From positions 1-29,011 of the forward strand of contig PRDJ01000022.1 in the NCBI GenBank assembly GCA_003345555.1: a stretch of 29,011 nucleotides of DNA, read 5' to 3'. Numbering within the stretch: the first letter of the stretch is position 1; each line of letters opens with the position of its first letter. The translations under genes were made by a program, and so were the position numbers. Source of the DNA: Candidatus Thorarchaeota archaeon (GTDB lineage: Archaea > Asgardarchaeota > Thorarchaeia > Thorarchaeales > Thorarchaeaceae). Below, piece after piece: positions 4,044-26,401 of the stretch. Under the pieces are notes generated by a model that was not told the origin of the DNA, searched no databases, and saw nothing but the letters and a program-made list of their open reading frames with translations.

Positions 4044-5204
4044 TTGGTTCGGAAGTACAAAATCGCGGTGCTGCCGGGTGATGGAATAGGTAAGGAGGTC
4101 GTTCCACAGGCCGTCGAAGTCTTGGATGCAACCGAGAAAGCTGTCAACGGACTCAGATTCGAGAAGCACGAATTCGAGTGCGGGGGAGAGCATTACCTGA
4201 GAACCGGACGGGAATGGTCAGAGGAATCTGAGAACTTCGTCAAGAATGAAGCGGATGCGATATTGCTGGGCGCGGTTGGTGCAGTTGCCAACAACGGCGA
4301 ACAGGTGCGGCTTCCGGACGGCAACATGGCAGGATACAGCATCGTGATAGGGCTCAGAATGGCACTCGATCTGTATGCAAACGTACGTCCCGTGAGACTC
4401 TACGAAGGTGTGCCAACCCCGCTTGCTGACAAGGGGAGTAAGGACATTGACATGCTCATAGTGCGAGAGAACACTGAAGGATTGTACGCTCCGATTCGGG
4501 GATATTTGTCGAGAGGAGAAAGCAAGGAACTTGCCGTTGACGTGCGAATAATCACCAAGAAAGGTTCCGAGAGGATAGCGAGGTTTGCGTTTCGACAGGC
4601 GATGATGAGAGACGGTGCTCCAGTGGATAAGGTCAGAAGGGTAACGTGTGTCGACAAGAGCAACCTGCTCTCAGGATGCCAGCTTTTTAGACAGGTCTTC
4701 GACGAAGTCTCAGCAGAGTTTCCACAAGTACAGAGAGACTACTCGTATGTGGATGCCTGGACACAGTGGTGCCTGAGAAGACCAGAATACTATGATGTTG
4801 TGGTTGCTCCCAATGAGTTCGGTGACATAATCACGGACTTGGGAGCTGCAGTCCAAGGAGGGCTTGGAGTAGCCCCGGCCGGGAACATAGGCGAGAAGCA
4901 TGGCATGTTTGAGCCCGTCCACGGATCTTCTCCAAAGCACTATGGTCGGAATGAAGCCAATCCGATTGCTTCGATTCTTTCCGCAGGGATGATGCTGGAC
5001 TGGCTAGGCGCCACGCATCGTGATCGCAATTGCACTGAAGGCGGCAGACTCATTCGCGATGCGGTCGCGACGGTATTGAGAGATGCGAAGACTAGGACCT
5101 ATGATTTGTGCGTCGGCAAGTATGCGAAGGTGACGCCCTCGTCGACTCAAGCCGTTGCTGCAGCAGTTGCGGACGCAGTCGGAAAACAGGCGGCCAAGGG
5201 GTGA
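4044..5204 (+). CDS. Isocitrate/isopropylmalate/tartrate (beta-decarboxylating) dehydrogenase family protein, LeuB-like
   Basis: Motifs [44 protein letters not shown] and [17 protein letters not shown] precedes the TTG start. Confidence 0.95.
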
Positions 5205-5208
5205 GCCA

Positions 5209-6477
5209 GTGGGAAAGACACTCGCCGAGAAGATGCTCGCCACCCACACCGAGAAAGGAAAAGCTTCGGCTGGCGAAATCGTTGATGCATCCATTGACCT
5301 CTTGATGGTACACGAAGTCCTGGGTTCGAGGATAATTCCGATTCTGAAGGAGATGGGTGTCAAGAAGATCTGGGACCCGACCAAGGTGCTCGTTGTCAAC
5401 GACCATTGGGCTCCAGCGTCGGACACGCAGAGCGCGGAGATTCACATTAGGAATAGGCAGTTCGTGAAAGAGCAGGGTATAACACACTTCTGCGATGTGA
5501 ACTGTGGAATCTGTCATCAAGTATTGCCCGAGATGGGACTTGTCAAGCCAGGGGACCTCGTGATTGGGAGCGATTCTCATTCGACTACATATGGAGCATT
5601 CAATGCATTCTCAACGGGTCTGGCTGCGACAGACAGTGCCCTAATCTTGGCAACCGGGAAGTGCTGGTTCAGAGTTCCCGAATCGATGAAGATACGTATC
5701 AAAGGTCAACTGCCAGAAATGGTGATGAGCAAGGACCTGATACTGAAGATAGTAAGTGACCTCGGAGTCAATGGAGCCAACTATCGTTCGATTGAGTTTC
5801 ACGGACCCACTGTCGAATCCATGTCCGTCGCATCAAGAATGACCATGTGCAACATGACCGTCGAAGCCGGCGCGAAGTGTGGATTGATGATGGCCAATGA
5901 TGCAGTGAAGGAATGGGTCACAACTCGCAATCCCTCTGCTCAATGGACCCCCGTAGCACCTGACAAAGATGCTCACTATGTCGCAGATATTGACATTGAC
6001 CTAGACGCTGAACCTCTGGATCCAATCGTCGCCTTGCCCCACAGCCCAGCGAATGGCAAACCCGTCTCAGAGGTCGAGGGATTGCACGTAGATCAGGCCT
6101 TCATAGGTTCTTGTACCAATGGTCGTCTAGAAGATCTTGAGATAGCGGCCCGTATTCTGAAGGGAAGGAAAGTCCATCAAGACGTTCGCCTGATTATTAC
6201 CCCAGCCAGCCAGGAGACCTATGTCGATGCCCTAAGGGCAGGCTACATAGACACATTTCTCAGCGCTGGCGCGGTCTTTACTAACTCGACCTGTGGTGCT
6301 TGCATCGGGGGTCATCTGGGTGTGCTGGGACCGGGCGAAATCTGCATCTCAAGCACGAACAGAAACTTCAGGGGTCGGATGGGGCACCCCGATTCCAAGG
6401 TCTACCTCGCATCCCCCGCAACGGTTGCCGCCACTGCAGTGAAGGGAGTCATCACGGATCCTCGGAGGCTCATATGA
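5209..6477 (+). CDS. leuC: 3-isopropylmalate dehydratase / homoaconitase family large subunit (archaeal type, about 422 aa)
   Basis: MGKTLAEK start (GTG at 5209 after GGGGTGA; the ORF track extends it to 5155). Motifs GICHQ, DSHSTTYGA, FIGSCTNGR, CGACIGGH and STNRNFRGRMG; the three Fe-S Cys are present. Confidence 0.93.
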   Translation: MGKTLAEKMLATHTEKGKASAGEIVDASIDLLMVHEVLGSRIIPILKEMGVKKIWDPTKVLVVNDHWAPASDTQSAEIHIRNRQFVKEQGITHFCDVNCGICHQVLPEMGLVKPGDLVIGSDSHSTTYGAFNAFSTGLAATDSALILATGKCWFRVPESMKIRIKGQLPEMVMSKDLILKIVSDLGVNGANYRSIEFHGPTVESMSVASRMTMCNMTVEAGAKCGLMMANDAVKEWVTTRNPSAQWTPVAPDKDAHYVADIDIDLDAEPLDPIVALPHSPANGKPVSEVEGLHVDQAFIGSCTNGRLEDLEIAARILKGRKVHQDVRLIITPASQETYVDALRAGYIDTFLSAGAVFTNSTCGACIGGHLGVLGPGEICISSTNRNFRGRMGHPDSKVYLASPATVAATAVKGVITDPRRLI

Positions 6478-6992
6478 TGTCGACCAGTTTGAAACCAGTC
6501 CGTGGAAGGGCATGGCTCTTTGGCGATAATGTGGATACGGATCAAATCATCCAAGGGCGGTACCTGACCTTGCTCGACTACTCCGAGATGGCCAAGCATG
6601 CGTTTGAGATACCGAGACCAGAGTTTTCTCGAAATGTGAGGAAGAACGACATTGTCGTGGCAGGAAACAACTTCGGAGGAGGATCGTCCAGAGAGGAAGC
6701 TCCACGGGTACTGTCTCAGCTGGGTGTGGGTTGCGTCTTGGCCCAGTCGTTCGCCCGGCTCTTTTATCGCAATGCAATCAACATAGGGCTGCCCGTGCTC
6801 ATGATACCCAACGTGACGCACTCAGTCAATGACGGCATGACCTTGGATGTCAACATCATCAAGTCTGCTGTCATAATCAAGGAAACAGGCGAGACGCTAA
6901 GTGGACAACCACTGTCACGGATGGTGCTCGATATCCTCCAAGCGGGCGGCGCTGTAGCTTGGTTTCGCAAAGTGAAGGAATCCCGAAAGTAG
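6474..6992 (+). CDS. leuD: 3-isopropylmalate dehydratase / homoaconitase family small subunit
   Basis: Motifs GDNVDTDQII, AGNNFGGGSSREEA and SFARLFYRNAINIGL. The ATG at 6474 overlaps the leuC stop (ATGA) and follows GGAGG. Confidence 0.93.
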   Translation: MMSTSLKPVRGRAWLFGDNVDTDQIIQGRYLTLLDYSEMAKHAFEIPRPEFSRNVRKNDIVVAGNNFGGGSSREEAPRVLSQLGVGCVLAQSFARLFYRNAINIGLPVLMIPNVTHSVNDGMTLDVNIIKSAVIIKETGETLSGQPLSRMVLDILQAGGAVAWFRKVKESRK

Positions 6993-8953: not shown

Positions 8954-10117
8954 CTATAGCTCGAACTCCTTGAATACCTCACGCTGAATCAAGAATCTGA
9001 GAATTTCAGCTGTGCCTCCACCGATGGTCATCAGTCTTGCATCTCTGAGAAAGCGTTCCACCGGGTAGTCGGTTGTGTATCCTGAGCCGCCAAGTATCTG
9101 CAAAGCATCGTTTGTGATCTGTACGGCAGCCTCGGTCGTGTATAGCTTTGCGATTGAGGCCTGCTTCGTTGCCTTCATTCCTTTGTCCAGCATTCTAGCC
9201 GCATTCAGAGTCAATGCGCGGCCAGCCTCGAGCTTCATTGCCATGTCGGCGATTTTGAAACTGACTCCTTCGAACTCCCTGATTCGCTTCCCAAATTGCT
9301 GTCGTTCGTTTGCGTACTTGACAGCAGTCTCATATGGAATACGCGCGTAGCCTATTGCTTCGCCTGCTATGGCAGTCCGCTCGCTATCAAGCTCATCCAT
9401 CAGTATCTTGAAGCCTTGCCCTGGCGACCCAAGGACCATGTCAGGTGGAATACGAACACTATCCAACTTGAGCCACGATACTCTTGAGGATTTCATGCCC
9501 AGAAGGTCGTGGTCCTTGACCACACTGAAGCCACTAGTCTTTGTGTCCACGATAAATGCAGTCATACCGTTTCTCGGGTCCACGTTGGGGTCAGTTATTG
9601 CGAAACAGCATATGTAATCTGCCTGACTACCATTGGTGATGAACCTCTTTTCACCAGTGACGAACCAATCATCGCCATCCTGGACGGCGTGTGTCTTCAT
9701 CCCGGCAGTATCAGAGCCAACGTCAGGTTCGGTGATGCCAATGGCACCAACCTTGTCCCCACGGATAATGGGAGTAAGATACTTCTTCTTCTGTTCCGGA
9801 GTACCGAACTTGCCTACCGGCATACCGTAAAGGGTAGCAGAAGCCATCCTCGCCATGTCAAGGCCGCCGTTGCACCTGCTAATCTCCTCCGCAACTATGA
9901 TTTCATACGAGAGACCCCTAGCAGATCCGCCAGCGGCTTTCTCATGATGTACGCCCATGTAGCCTGCTTTGCCGATTTTCCGAATCAGATCCCTCGGATA
10001 GGGGCCCTTGTCAAGCTTGTCTGCGATAGGCGTGATTTCCTTGTCGCAAAAAGATCGTACTTCCTCACGGAACTTGATTTCGTCTTCTGTCCAGAAGGTC
10101 TTGCTGAGATAATCCAT
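8954..10117 (-). CDS. Acyl-CoA dehydrogenase (isovaleryl-CoA dehydrogenase-type active site)
   Basis: Motifs GAIGITEPDVGSD, GEKRFITNGS, ELDSER, RQQFGKRI, ALQILGGSGY, ERFLRDAR and IGGGT. The start could be ATG 10117 or the upstream GTG 10144. Confidence 0.95.
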   Translation of the reverse strand: MDYLSKTFWTEDEIKFREEVRSFCDKEITPIADKLDKGPYPRDLIRKIGKAGYMGVHHEKAAGGSARGLSYEIIVAEEISRCNGGLDMARMASATLYGMPVGKFGTPEQKKKYLTPIIRGDKVGAIGITEPDVGSDTAGMKTHAVQDGDDWFVTGEKRFITNGSQADYICCFAITDPNVDPRNGMTAFIVDTKTSGFSVVKDHDLLGMKSSRVSWLKLDSVRIPPDMVLGSPGQGFKILMDELDSERTAIAGEAIGYARIPYETAVKYANERQQFGKRIREFEGVSFKIADMAMKLEAGRALTLNAARMLDKGMKATKQASIAKLYTTEAAVQITNDALQILGGSGYTTDYPVERFLRDARLMTIGGGTAEILRFLIQREVFKEFEL

Positions 10118-10257
10118 GATGAACCGACCCGGTCCGGGGTTCACAATGGTGCCTTAAATCAGTAACTGGCTGAGCAGTCAGCGTCATCTTCTGACTGGGC
10201 CCCAATGCTCGATTTATTGCCGCTTGGCAACTCTGGAGCCGTCAAGAGCGAAATAGG

Positions 10258-10602
10258 CTACTCGGGTCTATGGCCCTCAGAAGCCTGTGGTGTGTATCGA
10301 TATCTCCCTTCACGATCCACGTAGACACTTGCTGCTCCACCTATGCGAACATGAGAGGTATCCTCTGTGTCACCGAGACACAAAACCATGCCCCCTTCGC
10401 TCAACTCGACAAGAACCAAGAGAAGAGGCGAGTTAAAACCCTCAGGAGGCATGTAGGACACTGTGTAACTTGCTACCTTCCCTTCTCCAGCCACAGCGAG
10501 ATGAATCGTCTCGCCGGCGCCCGGACCGCAGTATGGACAGATGTCTCTCGGAGGAACTACCGCACGGCCACACCTCTTGCACTTGGAGATATCTATTGTC
10601 AA
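10258..10602 (-). CDS. DUF35 / ChsH2-like zinc-ribbon + OB-fold protein (thiolase partner)
   Basis: CKRCG...PPRDICPYCG ribbon followed by the GKVASYTV...LVLVELSEG OB-fold; lies downstream of the thiolase-like gene. Confidence 0.9.
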   Translation of the reverse strand: MTIDISKCKRCGRAVVPPRDICPYCGPGAGETIHLAVAGEGKVASYTVSYMPPEGFNSPLLLVLVELSEGGMVLCLGDTEDTSHVRIGGAASVYVDREGRYRYTPQASEGHRPE

Positions 10603-10653
10603 TTCAAACAGCCGAACTTCGCCTACTCTTCGCTGGTCAAAAGAGTTGCCATT

Positions 10654-10797
10654 TCAATCTGCTTGGCATGCTATTGCCGTGCCTGAGCATATCGTCGTGA
10701 AGAACTCACACCAATAACCCTGAGATTCCTCTACAGATACGCGATTCTCTATCATACTGTTGAGGATCGAGAGGAATTGACACGAAGGCGTCATCAT
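10654..10797 (-). CDS. Small Cys-rich protein, 47 aa, below the ORF-track cutoff
   Basis: Manual translation gives MMTPSCQFLSILNSMIENRVSVEESQGYWCEFFTTICSGTAIACQAD*. The ATG overlaps the thiolase TGA (ATGA coupling) and the ORF fills most of the operon gap. Confidence 0.55.
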   Translation of the reverse strand: MMTPSCQFLSILNSMIENRVSVEESQGYWCEFFTTICSGTAIACQAD

Positions 10798-11957
10798 CTT
10801 CCGAAGATGCAGACTACCATGTTGTTGCCGAAGCCCCCGATATTGTGTGTCAAAGCAAACTCAGGACTCTTGACCTGAAGTCCTGCGGGAGCTTTTCCTC
10901 GGATTTGGAGAGCCACGTCTCGTATCTGTGCGACTCCGGTTGCCCCGGTGGGGTGTCCTCTTGCTTTTAGTCCCCCAGTGGTATTAACCGGTATGCGACC
11001 GCCAATGGCGGTCTCTCCTTGCTTGACTAAATCAATGGCGTGACCGGGCTTCACCAGTCCAACATCCTCCATGTCAATCAGCTCCAGAATCGAGAAAGCG
11101 TCATGTAGTTCACAGACATCGATGTCCTCAGGTCTCAGTCGGGCCATTTTGAATGCTTTTCCAGCAGCAGAAACAGTAGCATTCAGGGATGTGAGACATG
11201 GTCTGTGTTGAACCGCGTGATAGTCCGTAGCATGGCCCACTGCAAGAACCTTCACTGAGTCATCGGTACGACCAAGTGTCTTCGCAGCTTTGGAGGAAGC
11301 AACGATGACCGAAGCTGCACCATCGGAGGTTGGGGAACAATCATAGAGCGTGAGCGGGTCAGCTACCATCTTGGATGCGCTCACTTTCTCAAGAGCGATT
11401 TCTTCCCTGAAGTGCGCGAGCGGGTTCTTTGCTCCATTCTTGTGTGCCTTGACGGGAATGAGAGATAGGTCATCACGCGATAAACCATAATCATGCATGT
11501 ATCTTCGAGCGACAAGTGCCGCTAGGGCCGCGGGTGTTCCGCCTAGCTTTGCCTCGGAGTCAATTGAAATCATCTTGGCCAGAATCTTGGAAGCAGCGCC
11601 TCGATCGATTCCCGACATCTTCTCTACACCGATAACCAGCACAAGCTGGGCCAGCCCAGACTTGACAAGTGCCACTGCCTCCTCAAATGCGCTCGAACCA
11701 GCAGAAGGGCCGGTCTCCACTCTAGTGGCTCCGGCCGGCACAAGGCCGAGATGATCCGTTATCAGTGTAGAAAGATGACCTACTCCCGTGAACTCGTCAG
11801 GATTCTGACTTCCGACGAGGACATAATCGAACTTAGCGTCGAGAGCATTTGAATCTCGGATGGCCTCCAGCGCGGCAGACTTGGCGAGTTCCGTAATAGT
11901 CTCGTCCAGCGTGCCGAATTTTGTCATGCCAACGCCAGTGACATAGACCTGCTCCAA
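10794..11957 (-). CDS. Thiolase-fold protein, SCP2/archaeal type, lacking the canonical nucleophile Cys
   Basis: Motifs VTGVGMTKFG, GVEKM, CSPTSDGAAS, ELHDAF, NTTGGLKARGHPTGATG and THNIGG. The TTG start at 11957 follows GGAGGGA. Confidence 0.92.
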   Translation of the reverse strand: MEQVYVTGVGMTKFGTLDETITELAKSAALEAIRDSNALDAKFDYVLVGSQNPDEFTGVGHLSTLITDHLGLVPAGATRVETGPSAGSSAFEEAVALVKSGLAQLVLVIGVEKMSGIDRGAASKILAKMISIDSEAKLGGTPAALAALVARRYMHDYGLSRDDLSLIPVKAHKNGAKNPLAHFREEIALEKVSASKMVADPLTLYDCSPTSDGAASVIVASSKAAKTLGRTDDSVKVLAVGHATDYHAVQHRPCLTSLNATVSAAGKAFKMARLRPEDIDVCELHDAFSILELIDMEDVGLVKPGHAIDLVKQGETAIGGRIPVNTTGGLKARGHPTGATGVAQIRDVALQIRGKAPAGLQVKSPEFALTHNIGGFGNNMVVCIFGR

Positions 11958-11970
11958 TGGTCTCCCTCCT

Positions 11971-12504
11971 CTACTCAATCAACACAAGCAAATCTCCTAG
12001 TGCCACGACTGAACCTTTCTTGATGTTGACCTCTCTTACTTTGCCGCTTGACGGGGCTTTCAGTTCGTTAAACATCTTCATTGCTTCTAGGATGCACACA
12101 GTCTCCCCTGACCGGACTTCGTCACCGATTTTGACCTTCACTTCGGAAATCCTGCCGGGCATTGGAGGGTAGATACCTCCGCTGACTCTCTTTCCGCTCT
12201 TTGTGGTCGCGCCAGTCTTCTTTGCGTCCTCGTCTCTTCTTACGTGCTCCCAGTCAATCTCACGGGTCTCACCGTCGATTTCCAGAACGACTCTCTTGCC
12301 CGCTCTCTTGACAATCTTGACGTTGTGATGAAGTGAAGCATTGTCTACTGACCACGTTCCATCTTTCTTTAGGGATGGCTTCAGTGTGAAGGACTCATCC
12401 CCAACCTTCACCACCAACGCGCCCTCTTCGCTTGAAGGCCGCACTTCGACCTTGAAGTCCCTACCATCGGATTTGGCGGTATATTCCTCGCTCACCACAT
12501 TCAT
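11971..12504 (-). CDS. Biotin carboxyl carrier protein with an N-terminal beta-rich domain (about 177 aa)
   Basis: Biotinylation motif EAMKM in a C-terminal lipoyl/biotinyl domain (PPMPGRI...GKVREV). The ATG at 12504 overlaps the upstream stop (ATGA). Confidence 0.93.
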   Translation of the reverse strand: MNVVSEEYTAKSDGRDFKVEVRPSSEEGALVVKVGDESFTLKPSLKKDGTWSVDNASLHHNVKIVKRAGKRVVLEIDGETREIDWEHVRRDEDAKKTGATTKSGKRVSGGIYPPMPGRISEVKVKIGDEVRSGETVCILEAMKMFNELKAPSSGKVREVNIKKGSVVALGDLLVLIE

Positions 12505-14081
12505 CCCTGTTCGCGGCTCTTCATCAAATCCTTTCTTCCAGCCGACGCCCAAATAGAGGGGCTTCGCTCCCATCGACCGCGGGCGCTCTGGCCAGTCCTT
12601 CCTGTCACAATCTCCCCGACACCAGCCTCGGCCCATGCGCTGCCCGCTGCAGCACCGGGTTGCTCGAGAGCGGTTTGATGACTGCTCATATGAAGTACTG
12701 CCGCTATAACAGCAATGTCTTGTTCTATGTTGGTCTTGCCCTTTGACTGACTCTCAGATCTCCTCTTGAAGAATTCAAGCGCGTACTGCGGGAACAATGC
12801 GTATGAAACCTCATCTCGCGGGACATGTGGTATGTCTTTCAGTGCCTCACGAGCCTTCGGCAGCTCGGGTTCAAGCAAGTCAGCCGGTCTCACACTGAGG
12901 GGCTTTTCGTCACCTATGATGAGCTTCTTCACCTTGGGGTCGATTGGCGCAGGAGGTCTGCCATAGAACCCACGGACATACTGCTTGACCTCGTTCAGAA
13001 TTACCTTGTACCGTTCCCCCGTTACCACATTCATTGTGGCCTGTGCCCCAACGATTTGGCTTGAGGGAGTGACCAGTGGTGGATAGCCAAGTTCGGCCCT
13101 GACTCGTGGTACCTCCTTCAGAACCTCGTCATACCTGTCCAGTGCACCTTGTTCTCTGAGTTGGTTGTCCAGATTGGACAGCATCCCTCCAGGAATCTGA
13201 AACACCAGCACCTGCGGGTCAACGCCCTGTAAAGCTCCCTCGAACTTGGAGTACTTACCTCGAACCTTCTTGAAGTACTCTGCTATCTCCGCCAGCAGGG
13301 AGACATCTAGCCCTGTATCTCGAGGCGTACCCTTCAGTGCTTCAACAATCGACTCGGTCGGCGGCTGTGAAGTTGCCATTGCCAGAGAAGAGACTGCGCA
13401 GTCGACGACATCCACACCTGCATCCGCGGCTCTTAGGTATGCCATAGAGGCCATCCCGCTCGTGTAGTGTGTATGGAGCTGAACCGGAATGTCAATCTCT
13501 TCCTTCAATCTCGTTATGAGTTCGAAGGCTACTTGAGGGGAGATCAGACCGGCCATGTCTTTTATGCAGATAGAATCTGCGTCCATCGAGTATAGGGTCT
13601 TGGCATCCTCGACGAACTTCTCTATCGTGTGGAACGGGCTCAGCGTGTAACATATTGCCGCCTGAACATGACCGCCTTCGCGCTTCACGAAGCGCATCGC
13701 GGCCTCCATGTTACGAACATCGTTCAGTGCATCAAAAACCCTGAAAATGTCAAGTCCGGCTGTGACCGCCTCGACCACGAAAGCCTCAAGCACGTCATCT
13801 GCATAATTCCTGTAGCCTACAATATTCTGGGCCCGAAGTAACATCTGGAGCTTGGTATGGGGCAACGCGTCACGCAGGAGTTCAAGCCGCTCCCAGGGGT
13901 CTTCATCGAGAAAACGCATCATGGTATCGAAGGTGGCCCCGCCGAACATCTCAAGGGAATGATAACCCACCCTGTCCAGCTTCTCGCAAATGGGGATCAT
14001 GTCCTCTGTTTTCATCCTCGTGGCGAGAAGGGATTGATGAGCATCACGAAGAACGGTATCGGTTATTTCTAGGCGCGTCAT
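12501..14081 (-). CDS. Keto-acid carboxyltransferase (transcarboxylase 5S / oxaloacetate decarboxylase alpha / PycB CT domain), no fused biotin domain
   Basis: Motifs DTVLRDAHQSLLATRM, GGATFD, FRVFDALND, IKDMAGL, HTHYTSG, PGGMLSN and YPPLVTPSSQIVG. There is no MKM motif at the C-terminus. Confidence 0.95.
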   Translation of the reverse strand: MTRLEITDTVLRDAHQSLLATRMKTEDMIPICEKLDRVGYHSLEMFGGATFDTMMRFLDEDPWERLELLRDALPHTKLQMLLRAQNIVGYRNYADDVLEAFVVEAVTAGLDIFRVFDALNDVRNMEAAMRFVKREGGHVQAAICYTLSPFHTIEKFVEDAKTLYSMDADSICIKDMAGLISPQVAFELITRLKEEIDIPVQLHTHYTSGMASMAYLRAADAGVDVVDCAVSSLAMATSQPPTESIVEALKGTPRDTGLDVSLLAEIAEYFKKVRGKYSKFEGALQGVDPQVLVFQIPGGMLSNLDNQLREQGALDRYDEVLKEVPRVRAELGYPPLVTPSSQIVGAQATMNVVTGERYKVILNEVKQYVRGFYGRPPAPIDPKVKKLIIGDEKPLSVRPADLLEPELPKAREALKDIPHVPRDEVSYALFPQYALEFFKRRSESQSKGKTNIEQDIAVIAAVLHMSSHQTALEQPGAAAGSAWAEAGVGEIVTGRTGQSARGRWERSPSIWASAGRKDLMKSREQG

Positions 14082-24741: not shown

Positions 24742-26289
24742 TTACAACGGTATGTTGCCATGTTTCTTCGGGGGTCTGCTCTGCCTCTTGCTAGCTAGCA
24801 TCTCTAGTCCTTTGCATATGAGCGGTCGCGTCTCATGCGGGAAGATTACCTTGTCAATGTACCCAAGCTCTGCAGCAATGTACGGGTTAGCGAACTTGTC
24901 CCTGTATTCCTTGACGAGTTCGATACGTCGCTTCTCCTTGTTCTTCGCCTCGTCGATTTCCTTGCGAAATATGATGTTGATGGCACCGTCTGGACCCATA
25001 ACAGCTATTTCTGAAGTGGGCCACGCATAGACTAGGTCTGCACCGATATGCTTGCTGCTCATCACGTCGTATGCGCCGCCATAGGCCTTGCGAGTGATGA
25101 TCGTAATCTTGGGAACTGTTGCTTCACTGAAGGCGTAGAGGATTTTGGCCCCGTGTCGGATTATGCCGCCCCACTCCTGTGTGGTCCCCGGGAGATAACC
25201 TGGCACATCCATGAACGTAATGATAGGAATGTTGAATGCATCACAAAACCTGACGAAACGAGAGCACTTGTCCGAGGCATCGATGTCAATTGTACCAGCT
25301 AAGTGAGCTGGCTGGTTGCCGACGATTCCCACCGAACGTCCGTCGAAACGAGCAAAGCCAACTATCATGTTCTTGGCCCAGTGCTCGTGGACCTCGAAGA
25401 ACTCACCGTTGTCGACTACCTTGGTTACGACATCACGCATGTCGTAAGGCTTGTTGGGGTCATCCGGCACTACTTCATCGACAGATGAATCTACGTTGTC
25501 AGGGGCGTGGCCAGTATTCACGCGAGGAGGCTCCTCAAGATTGTTGCTTGGCATATAGCTCAGAAGCTTGCGTATCTGGCCAATGCATTCGTCCTCATTT
25601 TCACTGGCAAAGCTGGCGACGCCTGAAATTGAATTGTGGGTCATTGCGCCGCCCAGCTCCTCTTGTGTGACTTCCTCACCCGTGACTGTCTTGATAACGT
25701 CAGGCCCTGTGATGAACATGTATGAACTGTTCTTGACCATTAGCGTGAAATCAGTGACCGCGGGGCTATAGACAGCTCCACCTGCACATGGACCCATAAT
25801 CGCTGAAATCTGAGGGATTACTCCACTGGCAATTGTGTTTCGATAGAAAATCCACGCATAGCTTGCCAGTGCCTTGACGCCCTCTTGGACTCTCGCACCT
25901 GCGCCATCGTTCAACCCTATGACCGCCGCGCCCGTCTCCATCGCAAGATCCATGACCTTGCAGATTTTCAGACCATACATCTCAGACAAGGAACCACCGA
26001 AGACCGTGAAGTCTTGGCTGAAGATGTACACCTTTCTCCCGTCGATAGTACCATAGCCTGTAACTACGCCATCGCCAAGTATCTTCTTCTTCTCCATGCC
26101 GAAGTCGGTGCAACGGTGTGCCACGAATTCGTCAAGCTCTACGAAAGACCCTGCATCAAGCAGCTTCTCGATCCTTTCACGCGCCGTATACTTACCGGCC
26201 TCATGTTGCTTCGTGATTCGCTCTTCGCCGCCGCCGAGCTTGGATTCGTCGCGTTTCTTCCGAAGTTGCTCAAACCTGTCATCTGGCAT
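24742..26289 (-). CDS. Acyl-CoA carboxyltransferase beta subunit (PccB / MmdA / transcarboxylase 12S type)
   Basis: Motifs [70 protein letters not shown] and [14 protein letters not shown] 26289 follows AGGTGA (the ORF track starts at GTG 26301). Confidence 0.96.
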
Positions 26290-26401
26290 GGAATGTCTCA
26301 CCTAATGTGCTCTAAAGACGTACTAGCTTGGCATATGGAGTTGGTTTTGAACATTCTGGCTGAACTCCGGAGAGACGAATGATGAATAGATATCGCCGCT
26401 T

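Follow-up and report, generated by a model that had tools for sequence, protein, structure and literature searches.

A proline-type, cysteine-less thiolase-like protein in the transcarboxylase operon of Thorarchaeota and its likely DUF35 partner

Introduction

What might a thiolase-fold protein do when a proline stands at the position of the catalytic nucleophile? This question is raised by a gene in the 29,011-nucleotide contig PRDJ01000022.1 of a Candidatus Thorarchaeota archaeon (assembly GCA_003345555.1), the whole of which is referred to below as the window. The protein, here named ProTHL, is encoded upstream of a short DUF35 protein, and a preliminary description of the locus regarded it as probably not a thiolase and compared it to the retro-aldolase Ltp2. 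The comparative analysis reported here instead places ProTHL as a proline variant within the two-subunit archaeal ketothiolase family. Together with the DUF35 protein it may form an active alpha/beta enzyme that acts on acyl-CoA at the propionyl-/methylmalonyl-CoA node through a thioester enolate and without an acyl-enzyme. We favour this reading tentatively and give it somewhat less than an even chance.

A proline at the nucleophile position

The following features of ProTHL are central to the question.

10794-11957, minus strand: ProTHL, a 387-amino-acid thiolase-fold protein (Pfam Thiolase_N and Thiolase_C_1), putative alpha subunit, without either catalytic cysteine
11706-11708, minus strand: codon of Pro84, at the nucleophile (CxS) position according to translation and alignment
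11337-11339, minus strand: Cys207 in a D-C-S-P loop, the sole cysteine-bearing site common to all orthologues (at 207 or 208)
11094-11105, minus strand: HDAF motif, with His285 present and alanine in place of the acid/base cysteine of the SCP2-type HDCF
10935-10958, minus strand: GHPTGATG motif, in which His335 is the oxyanion-hole histidine

Thiolases are recognized by four fingerprints, namely CxS, NEAF or HDCF, GHP, and CxGGGxG (PMC7682436), and in archaeal ACATs the defining motifs are CxS, HDxF, and GHx (PMC12960953). The nucleophilic cysteine belongs to the CxS motif (PMC7682436; PMC12960953), and the second catalytic cysteine of SCP2-type thiolases is the one in HDCF (PMC7682436). Translation of window positions 11688-11723 (minus strand) yields RVETGPSAGSSA with the proline codon at 11706-11708, and phmmer aligns Pro84 exactly to the cysteine of EAACASG in the thiolases of P. 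furiosus (PDB 7yvy) and M. thermolithotrophicus (6esq). Coordinates and alignment therefore agree on the proline that the preliminary description had reported. The HDAF and GHPTGATG motifs it had listed as retained are also both present, the former as part of an ELHDAF segment encoded at 11094-11111 (minus strand). The acid/base cysteine is missing as well, given that HDAF is found instead of HDCF and HNIGGFG instead of CxGGGxG. Retained are the HDxF histidine, the GHP histidine (oxyanion hole 1), the NIGG loop, and the thiolase fold.

In the AF2 model of ProTHL (pLDDT 97.1), Pro84 is located at the start of the helix following strand 76-80, which corresponds to the nucleophilic elbow. A Foldseek search with this model gave a TM score of 0.97 to 6et9_C/6esq_A, and the other top matches include 7yvy and 4yzo (6th), with TbSLP ranked 25th and Ltp2 46th. 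Sequence matches are similarly headed by archaeal thiolases with 285 (7yvy) and 251 bits, and Ltp2 (6ok1) scores 113 bits. In thiolases, the nucleophile residue contributes half of oxyanion hole 2 through its backbone NH. Because Pro84 lacks both such an NH and a nucleophilic side chain, an acyl-enzyme ping-pong cycle would be excluded. ProTHL carries the database label acetyl-CoA acetyltransferase, an annotation that is very probably wrong, and its score against NCBIfam PRK06064 is 419.4 bits for a cut-off of 420. The gene starts with a TTG codon at 11957, with a GGAGG ribosome-binding site directly ahead and the stop codon of the preceding gene, which encodes a biotin carboxyl carrier protein (BCCP), 13 nucleotides earlier. 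This start gives the same length as the 387-amino-acid database form.

The proline is highly conserved. G-P-S is found at the nucleophile site in all 120 of the closest homologues (64-88% identity). Of the 43 genomes sampled from this family, 40 carry an orthologue with at least 61% identity. Across 49 Thorarchaeota loci, the proline codon is CCT in 21 cases, CCA in 14, CCC in 13, and CCG in one. The agreement among the 120 homologues, the use of four different codons, and the presence in 40 of the 43 genomes rule out a sequencing error or a recent inactivation. The preliminary description had allowed for orthologues that all have cysteine; all of them have proline. On this sequence evidence, Pro84 is under strict selection rather than subject to drift.

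His285 and Asp286 are invariant and His335 and Pro336 nearly invariant (alignment A1), and His285, Asp286, His335, and the Gly374/Gly375 loop are retained in 78 diverse relatives. Alanine replaces the acid/base cysteine in 32 of 35 members of the clade described below. When this cysteine-less clade was compared with the cysteine types, no newly conserved tyrosine, glutamate, or lysine and no clade-specific new catalytic residue was found.

Placement among two-subunit archaeal ketothiolases

When 1.84 billion representative sequences were searched exhaustively with HMMER, the scores fell sharply, from 519 to 353 bits, once past the Thorarchaeota clade, with P0124 as the nearest relative outside this clade. 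Among the next relatives, the cysteine position is very often occupied by proline or serine, in which case HDAF is almost always present. The best matches in Asgard families f7, f9, f18, and f19 are of the proline type (ENGPASGGSA, HDAF, GHP) and share 42-48% identity with ProTHL. In an IQ-TREE phylogeny, 40 cysteine-less rows split from the cysteine types with 99% SH-aLRT support (FastTree support 98), and BktB-alpha of Haloferax mediterranei falls inside this group, next to an ST0096-like sequence. The 40 rows comprise 19 with proline at the nucleophile site, 19 with serine, and one each with threonine and glycine, and serine and proline have been exchanged there at least twice, or five times by parsimony. 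Judged from these trees, ProTHL belongs to an old, well-supported cysteine-less clade together with Haloferax BktB/PhaA and Sulfolobus ST0096. The phylogeny that the preliminary description had recommended groups ProTHL with the BktB-alpha/ST0096 clade, and in the sequence and structure searches Ltp2 is a remote match. A literature search on Thorarchaeota thiolases found no description of proline-type members.

In a review of the original Haloferax work (PMC7137286), BktB and PhaA are described as two-subunit ketothiolases whose alpha subunits use a 'Ser-His-His' arrangement and whose OB-fold beta subunits are indispensable. According to the same review, BktB condenses acetyl-CoA with propionyl-CoA. 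The two-subunit ketothiolase to which BktB-alpha of H. mediterranei belongs has been proven genetically. Its alpha subunit, encoded on plasmid pHM500 (4139-5290), contains RIDQTSSSGGAG and HDMF, and a gene for a 120-amino-acid zinc-ribbon/OB protein overlaps the end of the bktB-alpha gene. BktB-alpha and ProTHL are 36% identical over their full length, and the gapless BLASTP alignment around the site puts the proline on the serine of QTSSSG. Because proline occupies the serine position, the Ser-His-His triad cannot form in ProTHL, in which both histidines are present. By this comparison, the nearest characterised kin of ProTHL are ketothiolases and not aldolases. The view that ProTHL is probably not a thiolase consequently survives only in part. 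The canonical acyl-cysteine cycle is impossible with both the nucleophilic cysteine and the HDCF cysteine missing, but a thiolase-type reaction is not safely excluded when the nearest characterised kin are serine-type two-subunit ketothiolases.

The same genome carries a second cysteine-less thiolase-like gene on contig C7 (L004:1393-2655, minus strand). Its 420-amino-acid product contains RIENGGNTGGSA, HDAF, and GHP, and belongs to a clade other than that of ProTHL, beside P0248. Directly after it lies a gene for a long DUF35 protein of 241 amino acids (L004:664-1389, minus strand). On pHM500 (L120:3780-6009), the bktB-alpha/beta genes lie next to, and are oriented divergently from, a gene for a GNAT-family acetyltransferase, an arrangement that may be a coincidence.

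The clade common to ProTHL and BktB-alpha brings into consideration a BktB-type ketothiolase whose acyl-enzyme forms on Ser85 or on the cysteine of the D-C-S-P loop. Ser85 is present in every Thorarchaeota orthologue, as is a cysteine at 207 or 208 (D-C-S-P, D-C-C-P, or D-S-C-P), and the genomic context of a propionyl-CoA-forming enzyme and an acyl-CoA dehydrogenase (ACAD) would suit a 3-ketovaleryl-CoA thiolase. However, other proline-type members have alanine at the +1 position (ENGPASG), and thus there is no common hydroxyl position. The loop cysteine is not a compensating change, because 75 of 86 cysteine-type relatives also have a cysteine in this loop. Moreover, we take the Cys207 loop to line the pantetheine tunnel rather than the elbow, based on alignment to the Zoogloea thiolase, and the genome already encodes two cysteine-type thiolase/DUF35 pairs. 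An alternative nucleophile of this kind is therefore improbable.

Linkage to a transcarboxylase operon

ProTHL is co-transcribed with genes of a biotin-dependent enzyme. The neighbouring genes that bear on its role are as follows.

12501-14081, minus strand: 5S-type carboxyltransferase (HMGL-like and PYC_OADA), the first gene of the 5S-BCCP-ProTHL operon
11971-12504, minus strand: 1.3S-like BCCP of 177 amino acids (Pfam Biotin_lipoyl)
8954-10144, minus strand: short-chain ACAD (Pfam ACAD domains), directly behind the DUF35 gene
24742-26301, minus strand: 12S-type carboxyltransferase, the only one in the genome, which completes the transcarboxylase-type biotin enzyme

The 5S, BCCP, ProTHL, DUF35, and ACAD genes are five co-oriented genes on the minus strand. 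Wherever a Thorarchaeota locus includes the upstream sequence (about 45 loci), the order is 5S-BCCP-ProTHL, and the BCCP and ProTHL genes are spaced by 0-15 nucleotides or overlap. The most strictly conserved linkage of ProTHL is with 5S and BCCP rather than with DUF35, an association absent from the preliminary description. A DUF35-ACAD module, in which the ACAD gene always lies directly behind the DUF35 gene, is kept downstream of ProTHL in 14 of the approximately 45 loci, at a spacing of -3 nucleotides to about 4 kb. The best PDB matches of the ACAD in the window are butyryl-/short-chain ACADs.

The genome holds one 5S, one 12S, and one BCCP gene, and neither a biotin carboxylase (C-domain) nor OAD_beta was found in this 93%-complete genome, so the biotin enzyme is of the transcarboxylase type. 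For the same reason, the readings of 5S/BCCP as a pyruvate carboxylase or a Na+-pumping decarboxylase were rejected. A frameshifted PycB was also discarded as an explanation, given that 5S (about 527 amino acids) and BCCP (about 172 amino acids) are separate genes in all orthologous loci.

ProTHL is not obligatory for a transcarboxylase. Asgard families f12, f13, and f18 have 12S-5S-BCCP operons without ProTHL, and these are often followed by genes for methylmalonyl-CoA mutase, its B12 subunit, and MeaB. Two f12 superclusters (L117:4051-12055 and L118:4795-12078, both plus strand) contain 12S, 5S, BCCP, the mutase large subunit, the B12-binding subunit, and MeaB, and lack a thiolase-like gene. 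In family f7, the gene order is a complete Cys-His-Cys (type II) thiolase, ProTHL, a DUF35 protein of 115-122 amino acids, and a MM_CoA_mutase-family protein, and this order also applies to family f18, in which a proline-type gene lies 1.4 kb from genes for the mutase and MeaB. Tight co-oriented clusters of the f7 type are located at L101:2521-6998 and L100:4960-9421 (both minus strand). Proline-type thiolase/DUF35 genes thus have different methylmalonyl-CoA-pathway enzymes as neighbours in separate lineages, namely the transcarboxylase in Thorarchaeota and the mutase in other Asgard families. The idea that ProTHL might substitute for methylmalonyl-CoA epimerase was rejected, since a canonical epimerase gene lies beside those for the mutase and MeaB in the same genome.

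The operon also raises the prospect that ProTHL is a thiolase-fold carboxyltransferase, which would move CO2 to or from biotin on the co-expressed BCCP at a second acyl-CoA site independent of 12S. The strict conservation and tight spacing of 5S-BCCP-ProTHL, with the 12S gene located elsewhere, are in keeping with such a role, as are the apparent lack of a biotin carboxylase and the retention of the enolate-forming machinery. Nevertheless, this activity would be without precedent, a canonical 12S gene is present in the genome, and ProTHL is missing from other Asgard transcarboxylase operons. We consider this proposal very improbable.

Two further observations concern the surroundings of the operon. 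In many Thorarchaeota, but not in the window, the ProTHL gene is followed by a gene for a conserved protein of about 388 amino acids without a Pfam match, which starts with MPEGLAVLKWDDELGPVV (L005:9408-10574, plus strand, and about 25 other loci). Downstream of the ACAD gene, the window encodes a PFL-like glycyl-radical enzyme and a LeuB/LeuC/LeuD-like trio (43-1998 and 4044-6992, plus strand), and no link was found between these genes of the window and ProTHL.

A likely DUF35 partner

The candidate beta subunit is encoded by the following gene.

10258-10602, minus strand: short DUF35 protein of 114 amino acids with a C4 zinc ribbon and an OB fold (Pfam PF12172 and PF01796), likely beta subunit

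This gene is located 191 nucleotides downstream of ProTHL. The genome (2.28 Mb, 93% complete) encodes four thiolase-like and four DUF35 proteins, and three pairs are adjacent: an HMGCS-thiolase(Cys)-DUF35 group, a hydratase-thiolase(Cys, HDCF)-DUF35-hydratase group, and the second cysteine-less thiolase-like gene with its 241-amino-acid DUF35. By exclusion, the fourth pair consists of ProTHL and the 114-amino-acid DUF35 of the window. The numbers of thiolase and DUF35 genes are likewise equal in four other Thorarchaeota genomes (5/5, 5/5, 6/6, and 6/6), in which the lone DUF35 that does not adjoin a thiolase is short, shares the strand of ProTHL, and follows it at a distance of 11-21 kb downstream. 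In other lineages, the proline-type gene is immediately followed by a small zinc-ribbon/OB or unannotated open reading frame (ORF) of 63-122 amino acids.

A predicted complex of ProTHL with DUF35 scored 0.91, compared to 0.02 for the best of three controls. Of 80 solved complexes, 58 attain the mark used for this score, as do 2 of 110 mismatched pairs; these counts are rough since own alignments were used. Contacts are identical (100%) between runs, and the pLDDT of the partner is at least 88. The pairing with DUF35 put forward in the preliminary description is therefore likely, as the matching gene numbers in five genomes and the predicted complex suggest.

An alternative small subunit was considered in the form of a 47-amino-acid ORF with four cysteines that overlaps the ProTHL stop codon (10654-10797, minus strand). 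It was rejected because it has no counterpart in about 50 orthologous Thorarchaeota loci, and it is probably not a gene. The beta subunits of the cysteine-less clade are short (107-122 amino acids) and begin at the zinc ribbon, and the DUF35 partners of the cysteine-type thiolases of this genome have 141-142 amino acids. The zinc ribbon of BktB-beta (L120:3780-4142, minus strand) is apparently C-H-C-C, and that of the window DUF35 is C4.

A DUF35 partner is also compatible with an inert ProTHL, a thiolase-fold subunit that together with DUF35 would scaffold or regulate 5S/BCCP, the ACAD, or a true thiolase. Both catalytic cysteines are lost without a conserved replacement, and the f7 gene adjoins a complete Cys-His-Cys thiolase. 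There are also precedents in the dead HMGS-like subunits PhlA/MucA and the inactive thiolase-fold units in DUF35 complexes (PMC12960953), and DUF35 proteins can act as scaffolds (PMC6996347; bioRxiv 2024.07.05.601840). However, the thioester-binding motifs HDxF, GHP, and NIGG are nearly invariant over deep divergence, the clade includes the active BktB-alpha, and the proline itself is strictly selected. An inert subunit is unlikely, yet more probable than the other alternatives considered.

Proposed function

An active enzyme remains the reading that we prefer. ProTHL would be the alpha subunit and the 114-amino-acid DUF35 the beta subunit, with His285 and His335 polarising the thioester and stabilising its enolate. 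The bond next to C2 might then be made or broken by way of this non-covalent thioester enolate. The most likely substrate would be a short (C3-C5) 3-substituted acyl-CoA. One option is the loss of CO2 from (methyl)malonyl-CoA, and another is a BktB-like Claisen step that involves propionyl-CoA and proceeds without an acyl-enzyme. The propionyl-/methylmalonyl-CoA node is suggested by the neighbours of ProTHL, which are a methylmalonyl-CoA:pyruvate transcarboxylase and a short-chain ACAD, and by the mutase found in other Asgard families.

Several points weigh against this proposal. To our knowledge, no proline-type member has been assayed. A decarboxylase located beside a CO2-conserving transcarboxylase would have no obvious pay-off, and the transcarboxylase runs without ProTHL elsewhere in Asgards, so the link to the operon may be one of co-regulation only. 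The gene contexts of the more distant proline and serine relatives are heterogeneous and unrelated, and include in one case a uracil/xanthine-dehydrogenase-type cluster. The favourable complex prediction may reflect memory of, or likeness to, thiolase-DUF35 complexes that have already been solved (6ET9, 6OK1, and 7PXP). Finally, the serine of BktB-alpha is reported as catalytic, and a proline would be unable to imitate it.

A more specific and doubtful possibility, to which we assign a low probability, is that ProTHL/DUF35 handles a carboxylated acyl-CoA in concert with the co-expressed transcarboxylase. It would then provide a carboxyltransferase site that does not depend on 12S, or else catalyse a decarboxylative condensation of (methyl)malonyl-CoA that is made without ATP. 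If true, this would represent an Asgard module for chain extension that is free of acyl carrier protein (ACP), spares ATP, and dispenses with an acyl-enzyme intermediate.

In recent work, every archaeal thiolase/DUF35 pair is treated as a ketothiolase, and an Asgard genome has about 3.8 such pairs (bioRxiv 2024.07.05.601840). In the present genome, the catalytic cysteine is missing from at least two of its four pairs. In addition, the repeated swaps of serine and proline within a clade that holds a proven ketothiolase raise the question of whether this clade uses an acyl-enzyme at all. In Thorarchaeota, the ProTHL gene is firmly tied to the operon that encodes the cell's only biotin enzyme, and its reaction therefore bears on how propionyl-, methylmalonyl-, and perhaps fatty-acyl-CoA are handled in these relatives of the eukaryotic ancestor.

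Comparison with known systems

The preliminary description viewed ProTHL as an Ltp2/Sal-like retro-aldolase that works with DUF35 to cleave a branched (tertiary) 3-hydroxyacyl-CoA. The Ltp2-ChsH2 (6OK1) and Sal-Shy (9MYR) complexes do resemble the ProTHL system in combining a thiolase fold that lacks the nucleophilic cysteine with a DUF35 domain partner, a likely one in the case of ProTHL. An ACAD is encoded in the cluster, and His335 could in principle act as a base on the C3 hydroxyl. However, the defining motif is YDHF in Ltp2, YDCY in Sal, and YDCF in TbSLP, with the tyrosine as the catalytic base (PMC12329534), and histidine replaces this tyrosine in the HDAF of ProTHL. In the model for Sal, the backbone NH at the old cysteine position (Gly89) holds the beta-hydroxyl (PMC12329534), whereas Pro84 has no amide hydrogen to offer. 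The second catalytic residue is Tyr344 in Ltp2 and Cys304 in Sal, and the counterpart of Cys304, at the third HDxF position, is alanine in ProTHL. Ltp2 and Sal are also bacterial proteins with steroid side-chain substrates, they are remote from ProTHL (113 bits and Foldseek rank 46 for Ltp2, versus 285 bits for the best archaeal match), and the gene cluster of the window lacks a MaoC hydratase gene. The analogy to Ltp2 is therefore not supported, and retro-aldol cleavage by ProTHL is quite unlikely.

For the enolate mechanism that we prefer, TbSLP, the SCP2-thiolase-like protein of T. brucei (5AB4-5AB7), provides a working analogy. One of its structures, the Foldseek match 5ab7, has malonyl-CoA bound, and work by Harijan in 2016 reportedly detected weak malonyl-CoA decarboxylase activity. 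KS-Q/CLF domains, which decarboxylate malonyl thioesters without condensing them, serve as a second analogy; KS-Q has a glutamine and acts on ACP thioesters. These systems illustrate a mechanism that uses an enolate only, and no membership of ProTHL in either group is claimed. TbSLP has YDCF rather than HDAF and shares only 24% identity with ProTHL.

Closer likenesses are found among archaeal proteins. The best sequence and structure matches are 7YVY and the acetoacetyl-CoA thiolase of the thiolase/HMG-CoA synthase/DUF35 complex (6ESQ/6ET9), which share HDxF, GHx, and a DUF35 partner (a likely one for ProTHL) with ProTHL but have the CxS cysteine that it lacks. An orthologue of the 6ESQ/6ET9 system (HMGCS-thiolase-DUF35) is encoded elsewhere in the same genome. 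ST0096 of S. tokodaii (PDB 4YZO) is itself cysteine-less (NTSGSG), falls into the same clade through its homologue P0206, and matches ProTHL structurally with a TMq of 0.86-0.87. It differs in having serine rather than proline at the nucleophile site and HDMT in place of HDAF.

The Haloferax BktB system provides the most informative comparison. Like ProTHL, BktB-alpha retains the HDxF and GHP histidines and lacks the HDCF cysteine, and in both cases a short (about 110-120 amino acids) zinc-ribbon/OB protein is encoded downstream. Both systems are also tied to propionyl-CoA metabolism. They differ at the nucleophile site, where BktB-alpha has serine (QTSSSG) and ProTHL has proline (TGPSAG), and in their genomic associations, which are with PHA genes in Haloferax and with the transcarboxylase operon in Thorarchaeota.

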